Below, one piece after another: positions 7,936 through 61,610 of a stretch of 64,000 nt of DNA (positions are counted from its first letter, which is position 1; each line of letters opens with the position of its first letter). The notes under the pieces were generated by a model. That model made no database searches, had not been told where the DNA came from, and was given only the letters and a program-made list of their open reading frames with translations. Origin of the DNA: an uncultured virus (IMG/VR IMGVR_UViG_2049941000_000086) (lineage: Duplodnaviria > Heunggongvirae > Uroviricota > Caudoviricetes). The stretch is taken from IMG/VR virus record IMGVR_UViG_2049941000_000086; one strand, 5' to 3'. Both the position numbers and the translations under genes were made by a program.

Positions 7936-8208
7936 CGCACTTCTCCTCCGTACTCTCTTTTTTCTTGCGCGTGGACTTCTTCTTCGGCTTGACCTCCACC
8001 GGCTCCGGCACTTCCCGGATTTCGGCGATCTGCTTGCTGAGCTTCCGTACACGGTCTTCCCCGGTCAGCCAGTATTTCCCCAGCTCCCCGGTGATCTCTC
8101 TGGCGCTTCCGTCCCGAAAAACAAGAATCCTNNNNNNNNNNTTTCTAGCTCCCTTCTTTGGCTTTTTGGTGCCAACCTATCTTTTCCTTGCCCGATTCGC
8201 GCTTTCAT
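7916..8208 (-). CDS. hypothetical protein (interrupted by N gap)
   Basis: Hand translation ...ILVFRDGSAREITGELGKYWLTGEDRVRK...; start uncertain. Confidence 0.4.
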
Positions 8209-11200
8209 GTTGTGACTATAGTGTTGCTCGTATAGTACGTGGTGTTTACCGACGGGTCTCCGGTAAACGAACCTCCGGTGCCGGAGAACATATTGTAAGT
8301 TGCCAGAGTCGCCGCCGTTCCGTTTCCGCCGCTGGGAATCCTGTATTGCGTTGTGTAACTTCCGGTCTGAGCAGAAGACAGTTTGATCTGTGTGCAGTTT
8401 TGGAACATGGACATGTAGCAGTACGGTTCCAACTGTTCCGACGGGAGTACCGGAAGTTCTTCCAACGCCGTGCAGTCTGAATACATGGTAATACAACATC
8501 CTGGCGCAAGAGTTGTTGCGGGCATCGCGGCGGCCTTTTTCAGCGCTTCGCATCCGGAAAACATTGAGTTATAACAGTAAGTAGCAAGCGTGGTCGCCGG
8601 AAGTTCGGGAGGCTCCGTGATTCCGGACAATGCGAACTTCGCCATATAGCAGTCTTCGCTGAGCGTCATGGCCGTGAGTTCCGGTGCTTTCACCAGCGCC
8701 TCACAACTGCGGAACATATACCGGCAGCATTGCGCCGCCATCGCCGGGTGCCCTCCGTTTTGCACCGTTTCCCAGTCCAGCAGGGCTTCTATCGTCCCGT
8801 AGGCGGACACGCCGCTTCCGATGATGTGCCACCCGGCATTGTCTCTGTAGTCTGTCAGGACCGTGTTTCCGATCCCACGAAGGTAGAGATTGTTTCCGGC
8901 TCCGGAGGTAATGGAAATGCCGTTCCATTCCTGCCAGTTTTCTCCGTCGGTGGAGTACTCCATCGTCCCGTCCCATGTAGCAACCTGTCCGTCCGGGTAA
9001 ATACTGAATGGAGCGTTGGAAGAAAACCGCAGCCATACTCCTTCGGTGGGCTCCGGCTCCGGGGGCCATTCCGTCACCGTAGCCACGGGATAGTCATTTA
9101 CCGACACCGCAGATATTGTCATAGCCCCGTTGTACGCCAGCGGTCTTGTAAAGCCCTGGATCAGATGCCGCTCCACCGGGCTTCCCGGCTTGTCCGTCCG
9201 CACGATTTCCACAAGGGAGTTGAGGTCGATGTGCATCATTTGGATGCAGCTTATGCTCACCGCTTTCTGCAAGACGCTGCTTCGCTTCAGCCTCCATTCC
9301 GCCAGGTCGCGGCACTGCGTCGAGGTGGCGTAGCCGCTTGCGCTTTCGTACTTTGTCTTTCTCCCGATGAGATATACGTTGGTATCGCTGCGCGGGTCAT
9401 AGTTCGTCGCCCGTCCTCCGGGCTGCGAGTAATCGTCCAGCATTTCCCCCACAACGATATAGTCGTTGTAAACGTCTTCTTTCTTGACAGTGTAAGCCAT
9501 TCCAAGGAGTTGTGCTTCCTCCGGGGTAAAACGCCAGAGCACCGGCTTGTTGATATCCAGGATGTCATCCTGGCTTGGATCGACGCGCAGCCTGCCGGTG
9601 TTGTCGTAGCCCACCCATGCGTTCACCATTCCGGCCAGACCGATGATGATCTGTGCTTTCGTGCCTCCGTCTCCGTTCACCGTCAGCGTGTAGGGGCTGT
9701 CCGTCATGGAGGCTACCGTTCCGTCCGTCAGCTCCTGCGTTTTCCCGTTGTAATACTCCGTGTAAACGGGGGTCATATTGTCCAGGGGAAGTCCATTCCC
9801 CCGGTCCTCTGCCAAAAGCTCCGTGATGGGCTCAAAGATATTCGTGCCCACTGGAACTTCGTATGTGCCCTCCAGCTTCCCACCCAAAGTCCCGTCCAGC
9901 TCCGCCCATTTGTCCAGCAAGCGATAAGTCACGCTCTTTGTCTTCGGGTCTATTTTCTCCTGCGGGTTGTCGATAACGAATACCCCGGTTTGCCGGTAGT
10001 ATTCGCTCCCGTCCGAGAGGACAAGCCCTTCGTCCAGCGCAATCTCCTGTCCAAACCACACCTTGTTTACGGTGGTTTCAAAGGCCAAGTCCGCGTTGTC
10101 CAGCGTCACCGTGGCGCTGAGCCTCTGCCCGTTCTGAAGATTAGCAGTCACCGTACCGCTGGCGATAAAGGCGTGGCTTCGCTTGTTGCGCGGGTTGTTA
10201 TCAAGCGCGTAGGCAGTAGTTCCGTTGGGATTCAGGAAGCGCAGACGGCAGAGCTTTATAAAAGGAGTTCGGAGCTGCTTCAGATAGTCCTTTTGCCGCT
10301 CGATGGTGTTGAGATCACGCCCGACAAGGACATACAAAACGGCAGGATTGGAGTCGTAGTAGCCGCTTCCGGGGATTGCCGCCGTCAGAGAATAAATATA
10401 GGTCTGCNNNNNNNNNNNNNNNNNNNNNNNNNNNNNNNNNNNNNNNNNAGTGGTAAGTCCCGTATCGCTGTAGGTCTTTGCGTGTCCCTGATAGATGGTG
10501 ACCCCGTCCCGCTTCAGTGTGTATGTCACCGTCGTTCCGTAGTTTCTGAGTGTCCAATTAAGCACGACGTCGGTGGAAGTCTGGCTGGCTTCGATCAGGT
10601 CAGGCGTTTCGATCTGCGGGCGGACCGCCACGGTGATGCTGGTCCCAGTGCTGTCGTAATATCCGTTTGCTTTTGCGTACACCGTGTAAACGTAGTTGGT
10701 TCCGGGGTTCGTGCCGATATCCGTGTAGCTGGTCGCGCTGGTGCTTCCCACCTTGGTTCCGTCCCTGTAAACGTCATATCCGGTCGCTCCAGAAGCCGCA
10801 GCCCACGTCAGGCTGACGGTGCTTACCGTCTGCGTGTAATTCAGGTTCGTCACATTGGGAAGCTGGGGCTTGTTGGCTGTACTGATGCTTGCCGCGTCGC
10901 TGTCCCACCGTCCGCTTGCCTTTGCGGTGACGGTATAAAAGACGCTGACTCCGGCCCCGGCGCTGGAATCCACGTACTTTTCCGTGTTTACGCTGGCGAC
11001 GGTAGTCCCGTTTTTCTTGACAGTATAGCTGGAAGCTCCGGCCACCGCATTCCATTGTATCGTCGTGGATGTGCTTGTATAGCTCGCCCTCAGATTCGTC
11101 GGTGTGTCCAGTTTGCCTTGTGAGGTGTAGTTCACCACCGTCGGCTCGCTCTCCGCGTAGGATGCGGACCACGCCGCTATCTGCCTCGTATAAGCCTCGC

Positions 11201-12308
11201 CGTCGTCGATCCCAGTCTCCGTGTAGGGCGAGGAGGAGATCGTGCTCAGAAGATTCCCACTGCCGTCGTACACCTTGTATGCGCTGGCGTTGGTCACGGC
11301 GGTAAAGGCGATCTGCACTGTTCCCTCTGTCGGATAGGTGATTCCCGTGACCGTTGGGCTTGCAAGCTGGCCCTGGATGACGGTGATGCGAATATAGCCT
11401 TCACCCCGATGTCCTGCCGCCGCCGTTGTTCCGTCCGGCTCCGTGATGGTGCTGCCTTCCTGCCCGCTGATAGTAGAAGCGTCCGTCAGCCAATAGCTGC
11501 TCCCAAGCGCGTAGCCGCTTGGAACGCTTCCTGCCGTGGAGGATGTCAGTACAAAGCCGCTGCCGCCCCCTCCGGGATAGACGTACTCTACCACGTTCGG
11601 GGCTGTCCCCGTAGTCTGCGTCCCACCGGCCCCACCGCCGTACCAGCCTCCGCCTCCCATTCCCTGCTCGGTGAAGCTGCTGTTTTGCCAGTATCCACCG
11701 GCCCCGAAAATGCCGTTGCTGTACCAGTGATTTTGCAGGTTGTAGCCCGCGCCCGTCGCGCCTCCTCCGGTCTGCGTACCGCCCTGTCCGTAACGTCCGC
11801 TTCCACCGGCCAGTCCGGAAGCCCCTCCGCCGCCTCCGGCGTTCAGGTCTCCGCCGACGCCGCTCCACGTATTCGTGTAATATCCGGATTGCCCGCCTCC
11901 TCCTGCCGTCAGGACGCGGTGATACAGGCTGTTTTGCCCGATCCTTATATCGCTTCCCCCGCCGCTGCCGAAGTAGTAATCTCTGGTACTGTAGCTGTAA
12001 TGTCTGGCTTGCCCTCCGTTGTAGCCCACGCCTCCCGGAGTAAGGAAAACGGTTGCTTTGGCGCTCAGCGTCAGTGTACCCGCCGCATATCCTCCAGAGC
12101 CGTCCGCAGTTCCGGCGCTCCATCCGCCGAGACGTTCTTCAAAGTAACCGGCGGCGCTGCCCCATGCTTCCAGCCGATATATCCCCTTCGGCAGCGCCAT
12201 CTGTAAGCTTTGGCCCCTCCGTCCGTCGGAATTGCGGTAAGTGTAGTTCAGGATATCGCCGGTCAGCAGCTTGTCCGGAATACCGTCCCAAAGATTGTAT
12301 GTTGCCAT
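8205..12308 (-). CDS. large multidomain tail protein (Gly-rich domain, FN3 repeats, tail hub-like domain, LRR/BspA-like C-terminus)
   Basis: GGGG-rich N-terminus; W.AV.GA..Y.V FN3 repeats; ELPATTLA..CY.SMF..C repeats; GGAGG RBS. Confidence 0.85.
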   Translation of the reverse strand: MATYNLWDGIPDKLLTGDILNYTYRNSDGRRGQSLQMALPKGIYRLEAWGSAAGYFEERLGGWSAGTADGSGGYAAGTLTLSAKATVFLTPGGVGYNGGQARHYSYSTRDYYFGSGGGSDIRIGQNSLYHRVLTAGGGGQSGYYTNTWSGVGGDLNAGGGGGASGLAGGSGRYGQGGTQTGGGATGAGYNLQNHWYSNGIFGAGGYWQNSSFTEQGMGGGGWYGGGAGGTQTTGTAPNVVEYVYPGGGGSGFVLTSSTAGSVPSGYALGSSYWLTDASTISGQEGSTITEPDGTTAAAGHRGEGYIRITVIQGQLASPTVTGITYPTEGTVQIAFTAVTNASAYKVYDGSGNLLSTISSSPYTETGIDDGEAYTRQIAAWSASYAESEPTVVNYTSQGKLDTPTNLRASYTSTSTTIQWNAVAGASSYTVKKNGTTVASVNTEKYVDSSAGAGVSVFYTVTAKASGRWDSDAASISTANKPQLPNVTNLNYTQTVSTVSLTWAAASGATGYDVYRDGTKVGSTSATSYTDIGTNPGTNYVYTVYAKANGYYDSTGTSITVAVRPQIETPDLIEASQTSTDVVLNWTLRNYGTTVTYTLKRDGVTIYQGHAKTYSDTGLTTXXXXXXXXXXXXXXQTYIYSLTAAIPGSGYYDSNPAVLYVLVGRDLNTIERQKDYLKQLRTPFIKLCRLRFLNPNGTTAYALDNNPRNKRSHAFIASGTVTANLQNGQRLSATVTLDNADLAFETTVNKVWFGQEIALDEGLVLSDGSEYYRQTGVFVIDNPQEKIDPKTKSVTYRLLDKWAELDGTLGGKLEGTYEVPVGTNIFEPITELLAEDRGNGLPLDNMTPVYTEYYNGKTQELTDGTVASMTDSPYTLTVNGDGGTKAQIIIGLAGMVNAWVGYDNTGRLRVDPSQDDILDINKPVLWRFTPEEAQLLGMAYTVKKEDVYNDYIVVGEMLDDYSQPGGRATNYDPRSDTNVYLIGRKTKYESASGYATSTQCRDLAEWRLKRSSVLQKAVSISCIQMMHIDLNSLVEIVRTDKPGSPVERHLIQGFTRPLAYNGAMTISAVSVNDYPVATVTEWPPEPEPTEGVWLRFSSNAPFSIYPDGQVATWDGTMEYSTDGENWQEWNGISITSGAGNNLYLRGIGNTVLTDYRDNAGWHIIGSGVSAYGTIEALLDWETVQNGGHPAMAAQCCRYMFRSCEALVKAPELTAMTLSEDCYMAKFALSGITEPPELPATTLATYCYNSMFSGCEALKKAAAMPATTLAPGCCITMYSDCTALEELPVLPSEQLEPYCYMSMFQNCTQIKLSSAQTGSYTTQYRIPSGGNGTAATLATYNMFSGTGGSFTGDPSVNTTYYTSNTIVTT

Positions 12309-12328
12309 TCGTTCCACCTCCCCGTATT

Positions 12329-13800
12329 TTAAGAGGGGATACCCCAAATCCCGGTCTCTGCCGCGTCTTCGAGCGCGATCCACGGAACCGACACCGTCTG
12401 CGCAAGAGACTCAGTTTTTTCGTTGGTCGCAGTCGTCACAGCTCCGTTGAAGCGGACGCGCATCACGTCTCCCTTGCTGCTCTTGAGGAACAACGGCTCC
12501 TGCGTGACGCTGAGCGCCGTCAGCGCGTTTCTGATCGTCAGGCTGTCTGTATACCTTCCGTTCGTCACCGTCCCCACAAGGGCCTTCAGCACTCCGCTGC
12601 GGTAGTTCTGCGGTGCAGGCTGCACCGTTGGGTTCGCAGTGAAGTTTTGCAGTACGTTGGGGGCGTTGTTGTTGGAGATGCTTCCCGGTTCCATGTTGTA
12701 TTTGAAGTGGAATTGCGTACTGACCGTAAAACTCCCGTCCCCGTTTTGGCTTGTGGTCAGCAGCGTCCAGCGGTAAAAGACGGGGCTTATGGCGGTGCTC
12801 TGAACCGGGCTTCCGATGATGGAACCGGCGCTGTTTGTCGCAGCTACGAGATAGTCGTAGGGGCCTTGTCCGCTGGCGCAGCCGTAGTCCGTAATGCTTC
12901 TGACGCCTACGCCCACATCCGCGACTTTCACCAGAACGCCGCTTCCATCCTGTTCTCTGAATATAGCCCATCTGCTTTGACCGCTGGCCGTACTTAGTCC
13001 GGTCCAGTCGATGATGACGCCGTTCACGTCCTTCTGCACCCCGACCGTCACGGTCCCCGTGGTAGGCGTCACGCTGTAGCTGACGGTAAATGTCTGCCAG
13101 CCCGTGCTGAGAAGAACGCCGCTGCTGGTCTGTCCGGTGGCCCGGAAGCTGTAATTGAATCCGCTGCGGAAGCCACGGTAGGTGCAGGTATATACCGCCG
13201 CGCCGTAGATGTTGCCGCTGTCGTAGATNNNNNNNNNNNNNNNNNNNNNNNNNNNNNNNNNNNNNNNNNNNNNNNNNNNNTGCTTCCCTGCGCGATCTCG
13301 TACCGCACCCAGTCCAGGGTGTCCCCCTGCGCCTGTGAATAGGTAAGCGTGAAAGTATAGGCGCTGCTCGTCACCGTGGCGGGGACGGAAGCCAGATTGA
13401 AGCTGGGGTTGCTCCGCGTGATGAAAACACTTGCGCTGCTCTGCGTCACGCTGGCCTCCTCCCCGTTGTCGTCGTAATACTGGGTAATCACCATCTTGTA
13501 TTCGTTCCCGTTGGTGACCCCAGCGCCGCTCAGGGCGGAGGCGCTGATGGTATAGCTGTAGTATTGCAGTTCTCCCAGTGCGTCTGCTCCGTAGAACGGT
13601 GTTGAAAACGTGACCTTCCCCGTCGTGTACTTCTGCGTACTGGCCTCGTTATTCAGGTATATGGTTATCTTCATGCCCGTCATGACCGGGTAATCTCCGT
13701 TCACCTGCCACGAGACCTTCATGGGCAGCGTCGCGTCGATGACGCCAAGCCCGATACCACTTTTCAAATCGGGGATTACGTTGGTGGCTTGAAATAGCAT
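12329..13800 (-). CDS. tail protein (one gene; frame break only at the N gap 13229-13280)
   Basis: After the gap IYDSGNIYGAAVYTCTY..SVTPTTGTVTV runs in frame into the 12329 ORF; lies directly after the tape measure gene. Confidence 0.75.
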
Positions 13801-36809: not shown

Positions 36810-37781
36810 TTATTTTCGGCGTTTTGGTGCCAGTTTTTGCGCTATCCTTCGGTTTTCATAGGAGAAGTCTTCAAACCGTGGAACGCTTCTAAACAAGATT
36901 TTGTTGTTGCACCACTGCTGGAGCATTCGTATTTCATATGGAGCGTGTGGCTTGTCGTACACCATGACGAATGGGTCGAACCGAAGCTCCCGCAATGTCT
37001 CAACGCGGTATAAGTTTTCTTCCATGGTGCTATTGTAATTCGTGAGGACATATACCGTTCCATACTGTCCATGTGGCTTGTGCTTCGCCCTTTTCGCGTA
37101 TTCCGCAAATTTCTCTTTCAGGTCGTCTTTTGGGTTATCCCAAGCGAAATGGATTTCCTTTATCCTCATTTGGTTTATATCGTCTATGTCATCACCGTTG
37201 AGCAAACGAATATCCAAACCTTGGGTGAAATCCAGCCTTGCCCCGGTCTCACGATACTGCGCCATCAGTTCCCGCTTATCCCGGCAGGCTGTGATGTTTG
37301 GATCAAGGATTTTGATTTCCTTTTGCCCGTTCCAGAAGTCCGAGACGTCGGCCACTTTGGTGCTGACGCATCCCTCTTTCGCGGCCACATGGCAGAATGG
37401 GCATTGCCTGCTACAGCCCCTGGAGGTCATTGAAACGGCATACTTGAACTCAGGGTAAAGGCTGTAATCCGGGAAGCACCTCTCTATTTCAGGCGGAAGG
37501 TTTTCGTTCTTGCTCTTATCGAAGTGTTCCTTCCCGTCTTCGCCAAGGCTGATGCAGTAGCCGGTTCCACCCTTGATTACCAGGTCCGCGTTCATCGGCT
37601 CCGGCACATCCGGTGAGTAGGTGTCGGAAAAGACCTTGCTCATGTAAACGATATCATAATGCTCAAGGTCGCTCCACCACCACTCTACCGTATCTCCTTT
37701 GGCTTTGTGGTACGCGCTGATCCGCATGAGCGCCAGGTTCGGAAAATTGTGACCATCGACGTCAATCAGACCGATTCTCAT
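36810..37781 (-). CDS. radical SAM protein
   Basis: SRGCSRQCPFC CxxxCxxC motif; PNLALM N-terminal motif. Confidence 0.85.
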   Translation of the reverse strand: MRIGLIDVDGHNFPNLALMRISAYHKAKGDTVEWWWSDLEHYDIVYMSKVFSDTYSPDVPEPMNADLVIKGGTGYCISLGEDGKEHFDKSKNENLPPEIERCFPDYSLYPEFKYAVSMTSRGCSRQCPFCHVAAKEGCVSTKVADVSDFWNGQKEIKILDPNITACRDKRELMAQYRETGARLDFTQGLDIRLLNGDDIDDINQMRIKEIHFAWDNPKDDLKEKFAEYAKRAKHKPHGQYGTVYVLTNYNSTMEENLYRVETLRELRFDPFVMVYDKPHAPYEIRMLQQWCNNKILFRSVPRFEDFSYENRRIAQKLAPKRRK

Positions 37782-38383
37782 GACTCCTCCTTATATATGA
37801 ATTTATATCCTCCGACCTGTGCCAGTTTTCCGTTGGCGCATTCCGTTGCTTTGACATAATTTACACCCACGGCAGCAGCAGCTTCTTTTGCTGAGTAATA
37901 TGTACCCACAACAATGCCGTTTTTAAGCACCACGGTCTTCTTTCTCCCGCACATCTTTGGATTCTGGTAGTCATGTTTGGAAGCAATTTTCGCATAATTC
38001 ATCTTCTTGCTTCTCTCTTTGAAGTCCGTGTGAGCTACCGCCCTAGCTATCCGAGTTCCGTAGGTGTTTTGCTCCAAATTAGTAGCCCATTCCAAATTCT
38101 CTGCACGGTTATCTGTTTTGACCTCGTTTTTATGGTTTACAGTTGGTTTGCCGAGCGGATTGTCCAAAAAAGACAATGCCACAATCCGATGTATTGAGAC
38201 TAGTTTGGGCTTTTCTTCCCCGTTGCAAAGCGCAACTCTATGATATCCAGCAACGGAATCCTTGGGCTTCAACACTTTTTGGGTATAGTTGCTATATATT
38301 CTTCCCTTTGAACTCACCCAGTACTGATTTGAGTATGCCGGAAGATTTACCCTAGTCCAGATTTCTTCGATGGTACTATTCAT
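37778..38383 (-). CDS. NUMOD4-HNH homing endonuclease
   Basis: YWVSSKGRI, IHRIVA..F, VNHKNEVKTDNRAENLEW; AT-rich. Confidence 0.88.
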   Translation of the reverse strand: MNSTIEEIWTRVNLPAYSNQYWVSSKGRIYSNYTQKVLKPKDSVAGYHRVALCNGEEKPKLVSIHRIVALSFLDNPLGKPTVNHKNEVKTDNRAENLEWATNLEQNTYGTRIARAVAHTDFKERSKKMNYAKIASKHDYQNPKMCGRKKTVVLKNGIVVGTYYSAKEAAAAVGVNYVKATECANGKLAQVGGYKFIYKEES

Positions 38384-38388
38384 TGTAC

Positions 38389-39283
38389 TCACAACTTTCC
38401 TATTGCTTGATAGAAGTCGCCTTCTATTCCTTTTTCCTCGTTTCCAAAGTNNNNNNNNNNTAATAACGGCAATGCAAAAGGATTCCACTTCCGAGCTCCA
38501 CCTTACGCTTTCTGGCCCATTGATGGCGGCAAAGGCAAGACCGAATCCCTCTATGCCGCTGAACAAACTCCCCATTGTCGGTCTCTTTTCGTACTGTGCC
38601 GATATCCTCCGCATCAGCCAGCACCAGAACCCGCTTCGCTCGTTGGCGAATCCCACGGCGATACTGTTCCCCAACGCTTTATACTTCGGGGTATCCGCAT
38701 CCTTGTGGGTCTTCCCGTCTTCATCGACCCACTCCCCCAGATCAACCCACGAATCTGGGAAGCCCTGAAGCCTACAGCACTCTTTCGGGGTGAGTCTGCG
38801 CACGATACTATCCGACATATTGTTTTCCTCCCGTTCCATGACCGCTTGATGGTCGTGCATACAATCCAACGCATTTGCTATCGGAGACATGGACACTTGG
38901 TTGAGCTGACCGTTTCCTATGGAAACTGCTCTCTCCTGTTTATCATCCATGCTCTGTATCACCACCTTTGGAGTATGACCTTGGTTCGCTATGGGATGGC
39001 AGGGGTCTCCCCACTTCGGATGCGAGTAGTTTCCGGGGCTTGTGACCTGGGTAGTGTCAAACGGCAAAGCGTCAACAATCATCGGCACATATCCCCCTCC
39101 CATTCCCATGCTTGCAGGAAGCGTCGTACAATCTTCCGTCTCCTTTTCCGTCGCGTGGTTTTGATTGCTTTCCAGTATGATAGGCATATTCCCACCGCCG
39201 GTTCCGTATCTGGCGATTATCGGCATTGCGTACTCATCTTCTCTCCACCAATAACGCCTGACTTGGTTATAGAGTTTCTTCAT
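38389..39283 (-). CDS. C5 DNA methyltransferase part 3 (TRD-like repeats, motifs IX, X, I, II; permuted)
   Basis: RRLTPKECCRLQGFP, YKALGNS, GSLFSGIEG, WSSEV; end inferred across the gap. Confidence 0.8.
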
Positions 39284-45069: not shown

Positions 45070-46134
45070 TCAGGAAAAGAAGCTGCCTAGGACGTCGTCT
45101 TCGTCGTCGGGCTTAATGGTTACCGCTTCCTTCACCGGCTCAAAGGCCACGTCCTGCGCGGTCGGCTCTGCGGATTCCTTCTTGGGTCGTCCGCGTCCCT
45201 TCTTCACCTGCTGGTCAGCCTCGACCGAGGCTTCGCCGTCCACCGTTCCTTCCGTGTCCGAAGGGTTAATCTGGACGCTCTGCTCCCTAATCTCCCCGGT
45301 TCCGGGGTCCACGTTCATCACGTCGAAGGAAGCGAGGGCTTCCGCGTCCTTGGCCTCCTCGTCCTCGCGCTCAAGGACCGTGTCGATGTTGGTGATGGCG
45401 CGGAGCTGGACGTAGCCGCTGTTCAGCAGACGGCGAATGACCGTCTTTTTCATCATGGTCTCGGTGGCCGAATACCACGGGCTTTTCTTCTTAAGCCGCT
45501 CCGCCTCCTCCGGGCTGAGGTCGCCGCTGATAAGCTGGCGGTATTTGGAACGGTCGAAAGTCTTGGAGTACTGCTCGGCGTGATCGAGAATTGCGCCGAG
45601 GCTCATGTACTCAGAGCGGAAGAAGCCGTCCTTTTTCTCAACGTAGGCGTAGTAGCCGATGATGGGATGCTGCTCCGCTTCCTCGTCCGTGGCGTAGATG
45701 GAGAAGTCAAACTCCGGGCGCTTCGTCCGGCGGTTGCGTCCGACGTACTCTCCCTCACGAATTTCCACGCAGTCCATGTCGGCCACGTCGCCGCCCGCCA
45801 TCGCCATTGCGATGAGACCCTTGTATGAAATCTGGAAGCTGGCAGTCCCGGCGTAAGGAACGACATAATAGCCCATGCCGAGCATGAGACCCATGCCCTC
45901 GCCCCGGAGAGCCGCCGCCACGATGGAGGCGGGATTGCAGTTCTGGAGTTCCGTGCTGGAAACCACAAGGGAAATCAGGCTCCCGGTCAGACGGGCGGCG
46001 CTTTTGGCGTCCGGCGTGGCTTTCTTAATCATGCCCTGGAGGGCGTTGCCCTGAATGGCAACGGAGAACTTTTCCTGCTTGTTTACGATAGCGCCATTTC
46101 CGCTCGTGGTAAGCGCGTTGTTAGGTCTAGCCAA
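45070..46134 (-). CDS. recT: RecT-family recombinase
   Basis: CNPASI, YVVPY..FQISYKGL, MMKKTVIRRLL. Confidence 0.9.
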   Translation of the reverse strand: MARPNNALTTSGNGAIVNKQEKFSVAIQGNALQGMIKKATPDAKSAARLTGSLISLVVSSTELQNCNPASIVAAALRGEGMGLMLGMGYYVVPYAGTASFQISYKGLIAMAMAGGDVADMDCVEIREGEYVGRNRRTKRPEFDFSIYATDEEAEQHPIIGYYAYVEKKDGFFRSEYMSLGAILDHAEQYSKTFDRSKYRQLISGDLSPEEAERLKKKSPWYSATETMMKKTVIRRLLNSGYVQLRAITNIDTVLEREDEEAKDAEALASFDVMNVDPGTGEIREQSVQINPSDTEGTVDGEASVEADQQVKKGRGRPKKESAEPTAQDVAFEPVKEAVTIKPDDEDDVLGSFFS

Positions 46135-46140
46135 TGTAAG

Positions 46141-46716
46141 TCATCCTTTCACATTGAAATCTTTTCTCAGCTTTCGCTGTATGCTTTTTATCCGGTCGTT
46201 TGCCCAAGCGTCGGAATGGCCGAACGCCTTTCCTATTCCCGTCTTTGGCTTCCCGTTCATCCGCATGAGGACAATCTTCTTTTCCTGTTCCGTGAGCCTT
46301 GCGTCGAGGTACATTTCCAAGAGCAGTTCTTCTGCCGATCTCTCGGCGTTCCAATCGACCAGCGCGTCTGCATATCGGACTTCCGTGTCTCCGCCCTCGT
46401 CATGGAGGAGAGATTGTTCCAAAGAAATGTCCCCGTCTGGCGTCCGCGTCCTTTCTCTCCATGCCGCGATGATGCTGTTCCGAATTACCGGGGCGGCAAA
46501 AGTGGCGAACTTCAGGTCGCGTGAATCGTCAAATGCAAGGGACGCTTTCCAGAGTCCGATATAACCGTCCTGAATCGTGTCGTCCGTCACCTTGATGGCC
46601 ATGTTGTTGGCGATATACGGGACCAGCTTCATGTTCTCCAGAAACAACCCCTCGGCTTCTTCAAGGCTACGCCGACACCCGCTTTGCTTTTTCGGAGGCT
46701 CGCTTTGCCCGGTCAT
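46141..46716 (-). CDS. sigma-70-family sigma factor
   Basis: NMKLV, QDGYIGLWKA..FD..KFATFA..IRN; region-4 HTH. Confidence 0.85.
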   Translation of the reverse strand: MTGQSEPPKKQSGCRRSLEEAEGLFLENMKLVPYIANNMAIKVTDDTIQDGYIGLWKASLAFDDSRDLKFATFAAPVIRNSIIAAWRERTRTPDGDISLEQSLLHDEGGDTEVRYADALVDWNAERSAEELLLEMYLDARLTEQEKKIVLMRMNGKPKTGIGKAFGHSDAWANDRIKSIQRKLRKDFNVKG

Positions 46717-47047
46717 ATTCTCTTTGCCTTTCGTTGATAGCTTCCCGGTGCTTGGCTCGGTAGGCAGCGTCCGCAATACGTTTCTGCTCTCGGTGGGTCT
46801 CGCGATACTGCCTACGGTACTCGCTGTCCCGGCGTTTTCTCTCTTCTTCTTTTTTGAGCTCATCTGCGCTTTTCGGGAGACCTGTTTCCTTTGCCCGGTG
46901 CTTTCTCTTTCCCGGTTCAGGAATGTAGTCTCGCCTATTTATCTCCCGTCTTTCCTCCGCCGTAAGCGGAAGTGCTTCGCAAATGATATCCCAAAGGAAG
47001 ATGCTCTCCAGTTCCTCCGGGGAATAGTGGTTGTTGACGCATGACAT
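46667..47047 (-). CDS. basic hypothetical protein
   Basis: YRETHRE/YRAKHRE repeats; AGGAG RBS. Confidence 0.55.
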   Translation of the reverse strand: MSCVNNHYSPEELESIFLWDIICEALPLTAEERREINRRDYIPEPGKRKHRAKETGLPKSADELKKEEERKRRDSEYRRQYRETHREQKRIADAAYRAKHREAINERQREYDRAKRASEKAKRVSA

Positions 47048-48885: not shown

Positions 48886-49533
48886 TCAAAACCGTATCGG
48901 TGCTCCGGGGCGCTTCCCCGTCTGTACCGATTCCCAAAATTCTTCTTCCTGCTGAAGTAGCCACGCGAGATCAGCTTCATGCTCGCTGCGTTCGATAACG
49001 AATGCGTCCTTCAGGGTGATATCCCCGTTCATGTGCCACAGGGCCGGTTGCAGTACCACAAAGTCCCATCCGGTCGCAAGCAGTTGGTGGATGCACTGGC
49101 AGTAATACGCTTGAGGTATTTGACCGTCCCACTCTCTCCATGCCTCCCGGCTGTTTGGGGCAGAGGTCTTAATCTCCAAAATTCCGTTCCGACCGTCAGA
49201 AGATGTAATCTGCCCGTCAAGCGTCGCAAACAGCCAGGGCCGTTCCTCCTGATACAGAATGTCGTAGGGGTGGTACTCAATCCCGTATTCCGGGTGGAGG
49301 GCGGCGTAGAAGCCTCTCACAGCGGCCTCCATCAAATGCCCTCGTCCAACGTAATCCTTGCCGCTGATATCCTTCCGTTCCCTGCGCCCGGTGTGGATTT
49401 CCCAAAGTTCGTTTTTGGTCATCCACTTGGACATCCCGCAGACCGCCGCCGCCTCTGAAGCGCCCAACCCCCGCTCTGCTCGTCCCGCCAGCCAGGATGC
49501 CCGGTCAGGGTAACTAATTCGTTGGAGTGCCAT
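48886..49533 (-). CDS. YqaJ-like exonuclease
   Basis: GLGASEAAAVCG, ATLDG, LEIKT, YYCQCIHQL. Confidence 0.92.
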   Translation of the reverse strand: MALQRISYPDRASWLAGRAERGLGASEAAAVCGMSKWMTKNELWEIHTGRRERKDISGKDYVGRGHLMEAAVRGFYAALHPEYGIEYHPYDILYQEERPWLFATLDGQITSSDGRNGILEIKTSAPNSREAWREWDGQIPQAYYCQCIHQLLATGWDFVVLQPALWHMNGDITLKDAFVIERSEHEADLAWLLQQEEEFWESVQTGKRPGAPIRF

Positions 49534-50177
49534 TACGCCTGCATCACGTCAACGAGGTGGTAGCGCCCGTAGCCGCTGGTCCGCCCGCTGCCGATACCGA
49601 GACCGAATCCGGCGAGGTTGATGAAGCTGCAAAGTTGGTCGAGGCTGTAAACGTGGTCGGTGTAGTCCATCTTGAAGACGGCTTTCCAGCCGGAGAAGTG
49701 GCTGAGGCGCGTAGTGATGGGGGCACCGCGCTTCGGGGACATGAGGGTTTCCTCCAGCGTCCACTTGGCGAATGTGATGGGCACCAGGTTCCGCATCGCC
49801 ACGATGTTCACGGCGTTATCGACCTTCGTGGCGTACTTGTCGATCTCATTGCGGACGACGGCCTGACCGAAGGACTTCTTCAAACCGAAAGCGGAAATGC
49901 AGGGGGCGTTGTCTTTCAGCAGGGACTTGAGCATGGCTTCGTCACAGTCCTTGTAGGTGTCGGTGGTGGGCAGATCGTCCCGCCAGTGAATCGCGGTGAT
50001 GATGTCCTCCCAGGGGTTCGGGACTTCCCGGACCTTCTTGCGGTCGTCAGCCATCAGAGCGCGGCGATTCCGGGCGTTCATCTTGTTCAGGACGAGATCG
50101 CCGTCACCTTCGATGGTGATGATTGCGTGCTTGATCTTGATGGGTTCGATTTCGAGAATGTTGGCGTCCTTTTTCAT
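49533..50177 (-). CDS. solo RAMP/Cas7-like protein (Vipr-like effector candidate)
   Basis: ITIEGDGDLVL first strand, PCISAFGLKKS (cf. PxIPxSSLKG), C-terminal Gly loop AGFGLGIGSGRTSGYGRY. Confidence 0.75.
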   Translation of the reverse strand: MKKDANILEIEPIKIKHAIITIEGDGDLVLNKMNARNRRALMADDRKKVREVPNPWEDIITAIHWRDDLPTTDTYKDCDEAMLKSLLKDNAPCISAFGLKKSFGQAVVRNEIDKYATKVDNAVNIVAMRNLVPITFAKWTLEETLMSPKRGAPITTRLSHFSGWKAVFKMDYTDHVYSLDQLCSFINLAGFGLGIGSGRTSGYGRYHLVDVMQA

Positions 50178-50210
50178 GGTTTGCCGTTCTCCCTTTCTGA
50201 TTTAGAATTG

Positions 50211-50953
50211 CGCTCATGGGCGCGAGAATGACCTGTAATGTTGTGTCCTGTGCTATAAGGAACTGTTGTTGCTAGTAGTATTCCTTTGTATCCAGCAGTG
50301 TGTATATGGCGTTACAGGCCATTCTCCCGCCCGTGGGCGGTGTCCCCGGTCATCGTCGAAAGCTCGATGTTTTGTCATGCTGCGTTCTGTCCTCTGCCGA
50401 AGTGACATAGGCAAAAGTCAACTGTCTGCTGCGATTCCGTATCGTGCTTGGAGAGCATCAAGCCCTCGACGATGACCGGGGCGGTGATGTTTGTTCCGGG
50501 TTATGCTGTATTGTTCTGGTCTATCGCGTAATGACTTGTGCTGTGCTTTACTTTATTTTTCTGTACGGTCTGTGGTCGCTCCAGAGAGCGCCGGGAAAGG
50601 TTCTACCTTCTGTTATAGTGTGCTATCGTATAGTCTTGTCTTATAACCTGTTGTGAATTGACAAGTCCGCTGTTGCCATGATTGATACTGTTGAAAGTGA
50701 ATTTGTGATTTGAAGGGAGAGCCCTTCCCGGTGTCCTCTGTTTTGTGCTGTAATGCAGGATAGTAAAGCGTTCTCGGCTGTTACGTTCTGATTTGTACCG
50801 AAGTGCGATGCGCTTGCACGGCGAGTGCGCGGAACGCTCGTTTTGATTTATAGTGTGTTGTTATGTCTCACGCTGTTATTTCGTGAGTAAAGGTGTTCAA
50901 TCCGTTTTTGCAGGATTATTTGTTGGGAGCCGAACGCTCCGCGCACTCGCCGT
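50211..50953 (-). ncRNA. guide-RNA-like array: four ~27-30-bp stems and six tracts of NN+ACA-like pentamers
   Basis: Inverted repeats 50211-40/50310-39, 50344-72/50453-81, 50584-610/50712-38, 50818-44/50927-53; YGT-NN periodicity on the + strand; strand inferred from the flanking genes. Confidence 0.8.
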
Positions 50954-50959
50954 CAGAGT

Positions 50960-51466
50960 TCACGCCGTCTTGGATAGTTCCTCCACCGCCTCAATCAGCC
51001 GGGTCAGTTCCGCCCGGTCTTTGAGGATGCTGTATTTTCGCTGAAAAGCCAGCAGTTCACTCAGGGCTGATTGGAGAAGCCGCTGATATTCGTCGTCGTT
51101 GCGGACGGTGAATTCGATGGACCTGTACCCACGTTCCTCCTCGTTGCTTTCGGAATCAACGCCGCCGGACAGGTGGAATATCCTGACGGGTTCTGATACT
51201 TCGTCGTCGCTTTCTGCCGTTCGGATAATCAGGTGGTGGACGATGGTTCTTGCTTCCTGCTTGCGCCACTTTTCGGCGGCGGCATCGTTGTCCCATGTGA
51301 AGCACTTGTGAAGCTCCGTCGCTTCGTCCCGCGCTTTCTCTACGATTTGCTCCGGCGTTGCAGTGTCACCGATGCTTTTGATTTCCCGATAGACGCCCTG
51401 TGCGTTCGCTCCGTGGAACAGGCACTCAAAGCGCGGGTCCCAGCTCGCTATCAGTTCTCCCCTCAC
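50960..51466 (-). CDS. hypothetical protein upstream of the array (accessory candidate)
   Basis: TPEQIVEKARD..LHKCFTWDNDAAAEKWRKQEAR motif; GGAGG RBS. Confidence 0.75.
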   Translation of the reverse strand: MRGELIASWDPRFECLFHGANAQGVYREIKSIGDTATPEQIVEKARDEATELHKCFTWDNDAAAEKWRKQEARTIVHHLIIRTAESDDEVSEPVRIFHLSGGVDSESNEEERGYRSIEFTVRNDDEYQRLLQSALSELLAFQRKYSILKDRAELTRLIEAVEELSKTA

Positions 51467-59884: not shown

Positions 59885-59959
59885 TGGCAGGGATGGAAGG
59901 ATTCGGACCTGCGCGTAACTGGTTCAAGGCCAGATGCCTTTCCGCTTGGCTACATCCCC
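59885..59959 (-). tRNA. tRNA-Gln(UUG), atypical (C33, T-loop UCCGAAU)
   Basis: Cloverleaf GGGGATG..CATCCCT-G-CCA; anticodon loop CCTTGAA. Confidence 0.75.
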
Positions 59960-60260: not shown

Positions 60261-60334
60261 TGGAGCGAGTGACCGGATTTGAACCGGCGCTCCCAGCTTG
60301 GAGGGCTGGTGTTCTACCTCTGAACTACACCCGC
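60261..60334 (-). tRNA. tRNA-Gly(UCC) with C33
   Basis: GCGGGTG..CACTCGC-T-CCA; CCAGC CCTCCAA GCTGG; GGTTCAAATCC. Confidence 0.9.
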
Positions 60335-61457: not shown

Positions 61458-61610
61458 TGGTGCCGAGGGGAGGATTTGAACCCCCACGGTTGAACGACAC
61501 TTCATCCGGTAGCAGATATGGATTGTACTTCTCCACAGCTTGTCAGTGCCAGCACTTCAACTTAGTCTCCGTGTCGTCTGCTCGCTTTTTCCGCATTAAG
61601 CTACCTCGGC
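61458..61610 (-). ncRNA. tRNA-like RNA whose anticodon arm is replaced by a long insertion; CCA end
   Basis: GCCGAGG/CCTCGGC-A-CCA, D and T arms, GACGACAC/GTGTCGTT stem enclosing ~60 nt. Confidence 0.7.

Follow-up and report, generated by a model that had tools for sequence, protein, structure and literature searches.

The locus and its surroundings

The window, i.e. the whole stretch of 64,000 nucleotides that was analysed, is a temperate phage of gut Clostridia. Its genes include those for an integrase, a replisome organiser, an IstB/DnaC-like loader, SSB, RecT, YqaJ and a tape measure protein. It replicates with the replisome organiser, the loader and SSB; the original prediction had named an initiator/DnaC module. 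Between two minus-strand ORFs lies a gap of 783 nt (50178-50960) with four long inverted repeats, which have stems of 23-29 bp and loops of 73, 86, 101 and 90 nt. The genes and features that we refer to are listed here in the direction of the minus strand:

50960..51466, minus strand: P0002 (168 aa, GTG start), putative Vipr accessory protein (vap)
50818..50953, minus strand: hairpin 4 (inverted repeat I4, 91% complementary), 23-bp stem 50818-50840 / 50931-50953
50841-50930, minus strand: guide array A, ~18 pentamers, inside hairpin 4
50741..50817, minus strand: guide array B, ~15-16 pentamers, between hairpins 4 and 3
50582..50740, minus strand: hairpin 3 (inverted repeat I3), 29-bp stem 50582-50610 / 50712-50740
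50611-50711, minus strand: guide array C, ~20 pentamers, inside hairpin 3
50482..50581, minus strand: guide array D, 20 pentamers, between hairpins 3 and 2
50344..50481, minus strand: hairpin 2 (inverted repeat I2), 26-bp stem 50344-50369 / 50456-50481, enclosing guide 2
50368..50452, minus strand: guide 2 (array E), 17 NN-ACA pentamers, enclosed by hairpin 2
50211..50339, minus strand: hairpin 1 (inverted repeat I1), 28-bp stem 50211-50238 / 50312-50339
50239-50311, minus strand: guide array F, ~14 pentamers, inside hairpin 1
49533..50177, minus strand: vipr (P0001, 214 aa), predicted RAMP protein, Cas7-like, with a C-terminal glycine-rich loop GFGLGIGSGRTSGYGRY
48886-49533: gene for a YqaJ-like exonuclease, its start abutting the vipr stop
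45070-46134: gene for RecT, in the same window

Six pentamer arrays alternate with long hairpins

The identity autocorrelation of the gap peaks at lags 5, 10, 15 and 20 (0.31-0.33). At most other lags it is ~0.21-0.28, with lags 2 and 7 reaching 0.30-0.32. On the minus strand, each of the four loops, as well as each of the two inter-hairpin linkers, is a run of NN-ACA pentamers in a single register, and together the six span 50204-50930. Array D has the cleanest register, with column counts of A 13/20, C 13/20 and A 13/20. The window scan found no comparable pentamer runs elsewhere in the window, nor on the plus strand. The arrays lie by turns inside and between the hairpins, each of which is unique, and the same layout is present in relatives.

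We compared this arrangement with 80 related viral loci. Period-5 NN-ACA arrays were found upstream of vipr on the gene strand in 80/80 of them and on the other strand in 0. For the three fixed bases, the frequencies over 182 unique arrays are A 0.84, C 0.76 and A 0.95, and the NN positions are near uniform. An unbiased scan of 64 trinucleotides on both strands returned ACA on the gene strand in 76/80 P0001-like loci. MAGs that harbour relatives of the window's Vipr belong to Oscillospiraceae, Ruminococcus, Blautia and other Clostridia.

A close relative is represented by a 33-kb contig (run X6), in which the genes on either side, the stems of the hairpins and guides B and E are conserved. Compared with window positions 50242-50926, its loops F, D, C and A hold other sequence; loop F is unchanged in length (71 nt), D goes from 91 to 302 nt, C from 87 to 69 and A from 90 to 97. 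The sole change in guide 2 is 50383 C>T, which turns ACG into ACA and leaves NN unaffected. From these sequences, guides seem to be swapped as cassettes between conserved stems in close relatives. The nearest record (G001, 100% identity over 2 kb) is the same phage, and for this reason it is not an independent comparison.

Tandem and direct repeat scans of the window revealed no CRISPR repeats. Rfam assigned no family in the arrays and, in the window, three tRNAs only, and PADLOC on the window returned a Cas11a match at E 0.039 and nothing else. The promoter and terminator scan gave nothing above chance. In RNA libraries the locus is represented by one 233-nt contig over 50148-50380, which comes from a polyA library and may be DNA carry-over. 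RNA-labelled sequencing runs contained 0.05-0.07 of the sampled words; the sequencing-run data are Logan contigs, which carry neither strand nor end information.

P0001 is a Vipr homolog

VIPR (Viral Interference Programmable Repeat) was introduced in a 2026 preprint, whose text describes a phage-borne minimal RAMP protein, Vipr, with GGY/NN pentamer guide RNAs (10.64898/2026.04.26.720920). According to the same text, the NN bases pair with double-stranded DNA by a '1 nt skip rule', in which the skip falls mostly on the wobble base. A family profile of P0001 (A2), built from 75 sequences, matches PDB 36pp_D, 'SUSP1 Vipr protein', with E 4.8e-14 and 158 profile positions covered. The Pfam search of P0001 gave no match and PHROGs gave a weak one, to phrog_4652 of unknown function. 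Structure prediction from the single sequence reached a pLDDT of 28.6, and the AF2 model with an alignment reached 95.3. The top Foldseek matches of the P0001 model are Cmr4, Csm3 and type VII Cas7 (E 1.6e-6 to 1e-4, TM ~0.5). Vipr proteins are minimal RAMP homologs that have an RRM core and a glycine-rich loop. By the profile match and the predicted structure, P0001 is a Vipr homolog with a Cas7-like fold. Its family comprises 2,305 proteins at E <=0.001 among 2,422 candidates (196 cluster representatives), and G190, G194 and G204 are invariant across the 75 sequences.

The text of the structural preprint on SUSP1 Vipr (10.64898/2026.04.26.720927) describes one protomer per repeat, with the GGY bases flipped out and held; G1 is read by D177 and H17 and G2 by R138 and W178, and Y3 fits into a narrow pocket. 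SUSP1 D177, W178 and R138 align with S197, G198 and L158 of P0001. In the P0001 clade, GIGSGR stands in place of the G[ED]WRP of SUSP1 and distant homologs, and xRLxHF in place of their R[YF]R, so the GG-reading residues are absent from this clade. We infer from the alignment that ACA would be recognised by the altered G-loop and thumb of P0001.

The second gene of the locus, P0002, matches phrog_15946 of unknown function and has no Pfam or PDB match. A P0002 homolog lies upstream of the arrays and on the same strand in 79/80 related loci. We regard P0002 as a candidate Vipr accessory protein (vap).

Guide 2 spells motif A of a family-A DNA polymerase

On the reverse complement of 50368-50452, the NN bases of guide 2 read TC GC AT GA GC AG GT CT GC TG CT GC GG GA CA TG AA, identical to the seventeen in-register dinucleotides reported earlier. 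The remaining three bases per pentamer are mostly ACA/ACG. The first 16 NN equal codon positions 1-2 of SAIEARVLAWLAGEQW, PolA motif A. The original prediction had expressed this decoding as an IUPAC pattern, with 32 fixed bases, and had proposed searching viral databases with it. The pattern hits polA-type genes: it has 21 matches in viral_contigs, and 21/21 are in frame as AD[FY]SAIEARVLAWLAGE[QH]W. PF00476 (DNA_pol_A) was present in 3/3 host ORFs tested among these matches. The site aligns with Taq polymerase 'DYSQIELRVLAHLSGDEN', which is motif A and bears the catalytic aspartate. Because 32 fixed bases are matched 21 times, always in frame and in one motif, a chance match is impossible. 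The in-frame matches and the Taq alignment bear out the decoding as family-A polymerase motif A over 16 codons.

The spacing between the paired bases was examined on five complete target contigs, which total 234,598 bases. Guide 2 with one flanking pentamer matched 34/36 bases at a one-base skip, 22-23/36 at skips 0, 2 and 3, and 21-22/36 when the order of its dinucleotides was shuffled (five shuffles). A skip of one base is the only skip that fits guide 2. The best score of guide 2 proper is 33/34 bases because its 17th dinucleotide (AA) misfits the Arg codon after W. The wobble-skipping code that had been proposed from the sequence is therefore confirmed in that the reading is non-contiguous, skips the wobble base and equals the '1 nt skip rule' of VIPR. 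The claim that the window holds no polymerase also stood, as tblastn for polA gave a best E of 2.6.

Carriers of the target and targets of other guides

The targeted polymerase type was found in 1,675 phage records. Terrisporobacter, Streptococcus Javan, Ruminococcus and Oscillospiraceae phages are the nearest carriers with a name, and several are classified under Ca. Heliusvirales. Against six named phage polymerases, guide 2 matched 29, 32, 29, 28, 28 and 23 of 34 bases, and the losses are largely at Arg, where CGN is used instead of AGR (the guide carries AG). At <=3 mismatches the guide 2 site was found in 6/201 host-order genomes, and the reversed control gave 0. Among the six is an Oscillospiraceae MAG (G007, holding L124) whose guide 2 PolA motif A site (C27:28288-28334, 3 mismatches) lies on a different contig from a prophage that encodes a Vipr homolog.

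Guides from five other loci (L044, L045, L046, L056 and L064) match the same PolA ORF. Relative to motif A they lie at -228, +144, +147, +177 and +531 nt, on both strands and each in codon phase 0. The three between +144 and +177 land on the stretch aligned with Taq 'RRAAKTINFGVLYG', which is motif B. These five guides were not chosen for a PolA match and are thus independent support, found in a local database that the first scan had enriched for the PolA gene. When 182 guides were scanned against 0.8 Mb, 6 reached at least 90% at skip 1 and 0 did so at skip 0 or 2; the maximum of the shuffled controls was 0.889. Another pair of loci is connected by a guide of L049 (2346-2405), which matches the vipr gene of L040 (3052) at 22/24 bases with a one-base skip.

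The six guides showed no self-target in the window, where the best match was 25/40 bases. Exact 10-11-codon cores of guides A, B, C, D and F had no match in viral_contigs, and the exact core of guide B had none in metagenome_contigs either. Guides A and F had no match at <=3 mismatches in the five polymerase-bearing contigs, and guides A, B, C, D and F gave background scores both there and in the fetched loci (0.87 Mb). Since mismatches within the core escape detection, the blank exact-core scans do not show that the guides are target-less. Guide D has a candidate target in a metagenome contig (L142:1189-1251), with 12 consecutive codons VEIVAARFREDI, 32/40 bases and phase 0. The 117-aa ORF that holds it has no PHROG match. 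By its sequence, this could represent a genuine target or just a chance match of the 22-base core.

The locus as a VIPR system

We consider 49533-51466 (minus strand) to be a VIPR locus of a temperate gut Clostridia phage, with a probability of roughly 85%. The small accessory gene comes first, followed by the six guide arrays and then vipr. By analogy with SUSP1, the minus strand of the locus would be transcribed, and each pentamer would be bound by one Vipr protomer, which would hold the fixed ACA and display the two variable bases. The guides would be expressed and then processed, probably through cleavage of the long stems by RNase III or another double-strand RNase. The displayed NN would then pair with double-stranded DNA, every third base being skipped, and a guide of 16-17 repeats would thus read ~48 bp of target, given the one-base skip. 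As in the SUSP1 case, the bound Vipr filament would block transcription of the target.

Guide 2 would pair with the template strand of polA. As the skipped base is the wobble position, it would recognise motif A (SAIEARVLAWLAGEQW) despite synonymous codons. The likely effect, judged from the known system, would be that the polymerase is silenced in competitors within the same host, namely Heliusvirales-like phages or prophages of Firmicutes. The original prediction of an attack on a gene of rival phages is supported at the level of sequence, as the window is without polA and without a self-target and the gene is recurrently matched. Silencing or interference by the locus would be expected on the model of the described VIPR systems.

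Alternative explanations

The guides are very probably read as minus-strand NN-ACA RNAs. The same VIPR system could instead have guides transcribed from the plus strand as TGT/NN ('xGY'), antisense to the vipr operon, and guide 2 would then pair with the polA coding strand or mRNA. The fixed triplet ACA falls outside GGY and the listed variants (NNNGG, YNNNG and NNNNG), while TGT on the other strand fits the YNNNG class given in the methods of the discovery preprint (10.64898/2026.04.26.720920). TGT/NN also resembles GGY at 2/3 positions (G at position 2, pyrimidine at position 3), and motif homology therefore argues weakly for the other strand. The WGT/NN and TGH/NN classes in the text of the Evo-PIN survey (10.64898/2026.10.21.760802) would suit TGT as well, and the plus strand has a sigma-70-like TTGCCG-16-TAGAAT at 50181-50208. 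However, such promoter-like sites are at chance level (1 found vs 1.1 expected), and the RNA structures point the other way. Among 132 strong flanking stems, 115 are stabler on the gene strand, 16 on the other strand and 1 is equal, with means of -33.4 vs -26.1 kcal/mol (Wilcoxon p 1e-17); this asymmetry consists of G-U pairs on the gene strand, which are A-C mismatches on the opposite one. Hairpin 2 as minus-strand RNA forms 26/26 pairs unbroken with -69.2 kcal/mol and z -7.08, against -65.2 kcal/mol and z -3.76 as plus-strand RNA. In phiSUSP1 the canonical GGY arrays share the strand of vipr, and in loci of a distant homolog (P0178-like) GGC, GGT, AGG (a shifted GG) and similar triplets are on the gene strand in 57/63. 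The GG-reading residues of the protein, moreover, are not conserved here. Given the stem stability, the z of hairpin 2 and the strand of the phiSUSP1 arrays, we read the guides as minus-strand NN-ACA RNAs and find transcription from the plus strand improbable.

Other ways of explaining the arrays concern what the protein does with them. Ring proteins of the type of TRAP (trp RNA-binding attenuation protein) bind period-5 triplet repeats, (G/U)AG, with free spacers. The arrays look like such a substrate, with a triplet to be read about every five bases and free spacers in between, and 5/6 guides of the window are without an established target; an oligomeric RNA-binding protein could thus read the triplets as a sponge or operon regulator, NN would be uninformative and the polymerase match would be chance. 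This is hardly credible in view of a 32-base pattern that is matched 21 times, always in frame and in one motif, and of five further guides that match the same gene in phase 0. The NN bases are hypervariable and exchanged as cassettes among close relatives, and the neighbouring P0001 is a Vipr homolog, unrelated to TRAP. The spacers here carry the information. It could also be proposed that the target is destroyed and not silenced, with the YqaJ-like exonuclease (48886-49533) as a nuclease effector. Its gene abuts vipr, and VIPR types III-V carry nucleases or helicases according to the preprint's text (10.64898/2026.04.26.720920). A YqaJ homolog is, however, near vipr in 4/80 related loci as opposed to 79/80 for the P0002-like gene, and YqaJ with RecT is an ordinary phage recombination pair, which makes a nuclease effector very unlikely.

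RecT/single-strand annealing proteins cover 5 nt per monomer, and we had also considered a loading site for such a protein, together with a MazF ACA decoy, a replication origin and the TRAP-like sponge. All four were dropped, given the NN match and the Vipr homology.

Relation to known systems

The code of the arrays is the published VIPR rule and the principle is therefore not new. The text of the discovery preprint distinguishes seven VIPR types and its methods list NNNGG, YNNNG and NNNNG variants (10.64898/2026.04.26.720920); the word 'polymerase' is absent from its main text. A further preprint also treats VIPR (10.64898/2026.10.15.759431).

The locus is most readily compared with the type II VIPR of Escherichia phage SUSP1 (Vipr, vap1 and vrRNAs). 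Both have a homologous RAMP protein (E 4.8e-14), pentamer arrays on the vipr strand with three fixed and two variable bases, and a one-base target skip on the wobble position. Both are phage-borne, with targets in competing mobile elements and without a self-target. However, the fixed trinucleotide is ACA here and GGY in SUSP1, the G-loop is GSGR here and GDWRP in SUSP1, and thumb R138 is not kept. In VIPR systems each vrRNA, ~100 nt long, is capped by an invariant structured 3' tail, which is a pseudoknot in the SUSP1 clade. The repeated tail and leader are plainly visible in phiSUSP1, whereas the repeat scan of our window found no repeated leader and no 3' tail/pseudoknot of the SUSP1 kind; unique 23-29-bp stems bracket every second array instead. 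An array has 14-20 repeats here, compared with the 9-16 given for VIPR in the text of the preprint, and all arrays are enclosed by the accessory gene and vipr. The product of the accessory gene matches nothing named. The target is an essential replication enzyme, in contrast to the satellite and lysis-lysogeny genes that the preprint's text reports.

The text of the Evo-PIN survey (10.64898/2026.10.21.760802) describes 21 non-canonical VIPR-like clusters with 6,318 sequences and gives GAC, CAC, WGT and TGH as examples. Like our locus, these clusters have period-5 arrays with other fixed trinucleotides and adjoining Vipr-like folds. ACA/NN is not named among the examples in the survey's text, the full list being its Fig. 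S10A. The P0001 family could be its WGT or TGH class if the survey sequences are oriented oppositely. Strand evidence, hairpin architecture and targets, as presented here, do not appear in the text of the survey.

The backbone of class 1 CRISPR-Cas (Cas7: Csm3, Cmr4, type VII Cas7) shares the fold of the guide-binding subunit. As in Cas7 filaments, one subunit per guide repeat and periodic base flipping would be expected. On the other hand, CRISPR repeats, other cas genes and a contiguous spacer are missing here, and the period is 5 with 2 paired bases, compared with a Cas7 period of 6 with 5 paired.

The locus is a divergent VIPR variant, with the ACA trinucleotide, hairpin-bracketed cassettes and a different partner gene. 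Slightly below even odds, in our estimate, is the fuller claim of an undescribed VIPR type. The change from GGY to ACA would have come about through the replacement of D/E-W by S-G in the G-loop and the loss of the thumb arginine. The guide cassettes would alternate inside and between unique long hairpins, which would be host double-strand RNase sites and recombination handles by which phages trade guides, and the clade would aim the wobble skip at motifs that are invariant in the protein (PolA motifs A and B). If this is true, one guide reaches diverged rival phages and synonymous escape mutations are useless to them.

Since the G[ED]WRP clade goes with GGY and the GSGR clade with ACA, the comparison points to the residues that set the trinucleotide. 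One alignable family with two triplets is a natural experiment in trinucleotide recognition, and it suggests that orthogonal VIPR scaffolds exist for side-by-side use. The natural target is unusually clear, as the catalytic motif of an essential polymerase is repeatedly matched by independent guides of the clade, and PolA targeting illustrates how a virus benefits from a wobble-skipping code. Besides tails and ribozymes, hairpin-bracketed cassettes would be a third guide arrangement, and they offer an idea for how guides are processed and exchanged.

Further observations in the window

A phage sigma-70 family factor is encoded at 46141-46863 (minus strand), between a Holliday junction resolvase and RecT; the VIPR locus belongs to this early operon too. 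One of the Rfam tRNAs spans 150 nt (61461-61610, minus strand, 36.6 bits) and may carry an insert or intron; two ordinary tRNAs lie near it (59888-59959 and 60264-60334). A 501-aa ORF at 37778-39283 (minus strand) joins a fragment of a C-5 cytosine methylase to NUMOD4 and HNH_3 domains; a homing endonuclease may have interrupted the methylase gene or been fused to it. In the tail region, a 1,392-aa protein (8205-12383, minus strand) contains an ALK/LTK glycine-rich domain (PF12810, E 3e-28).
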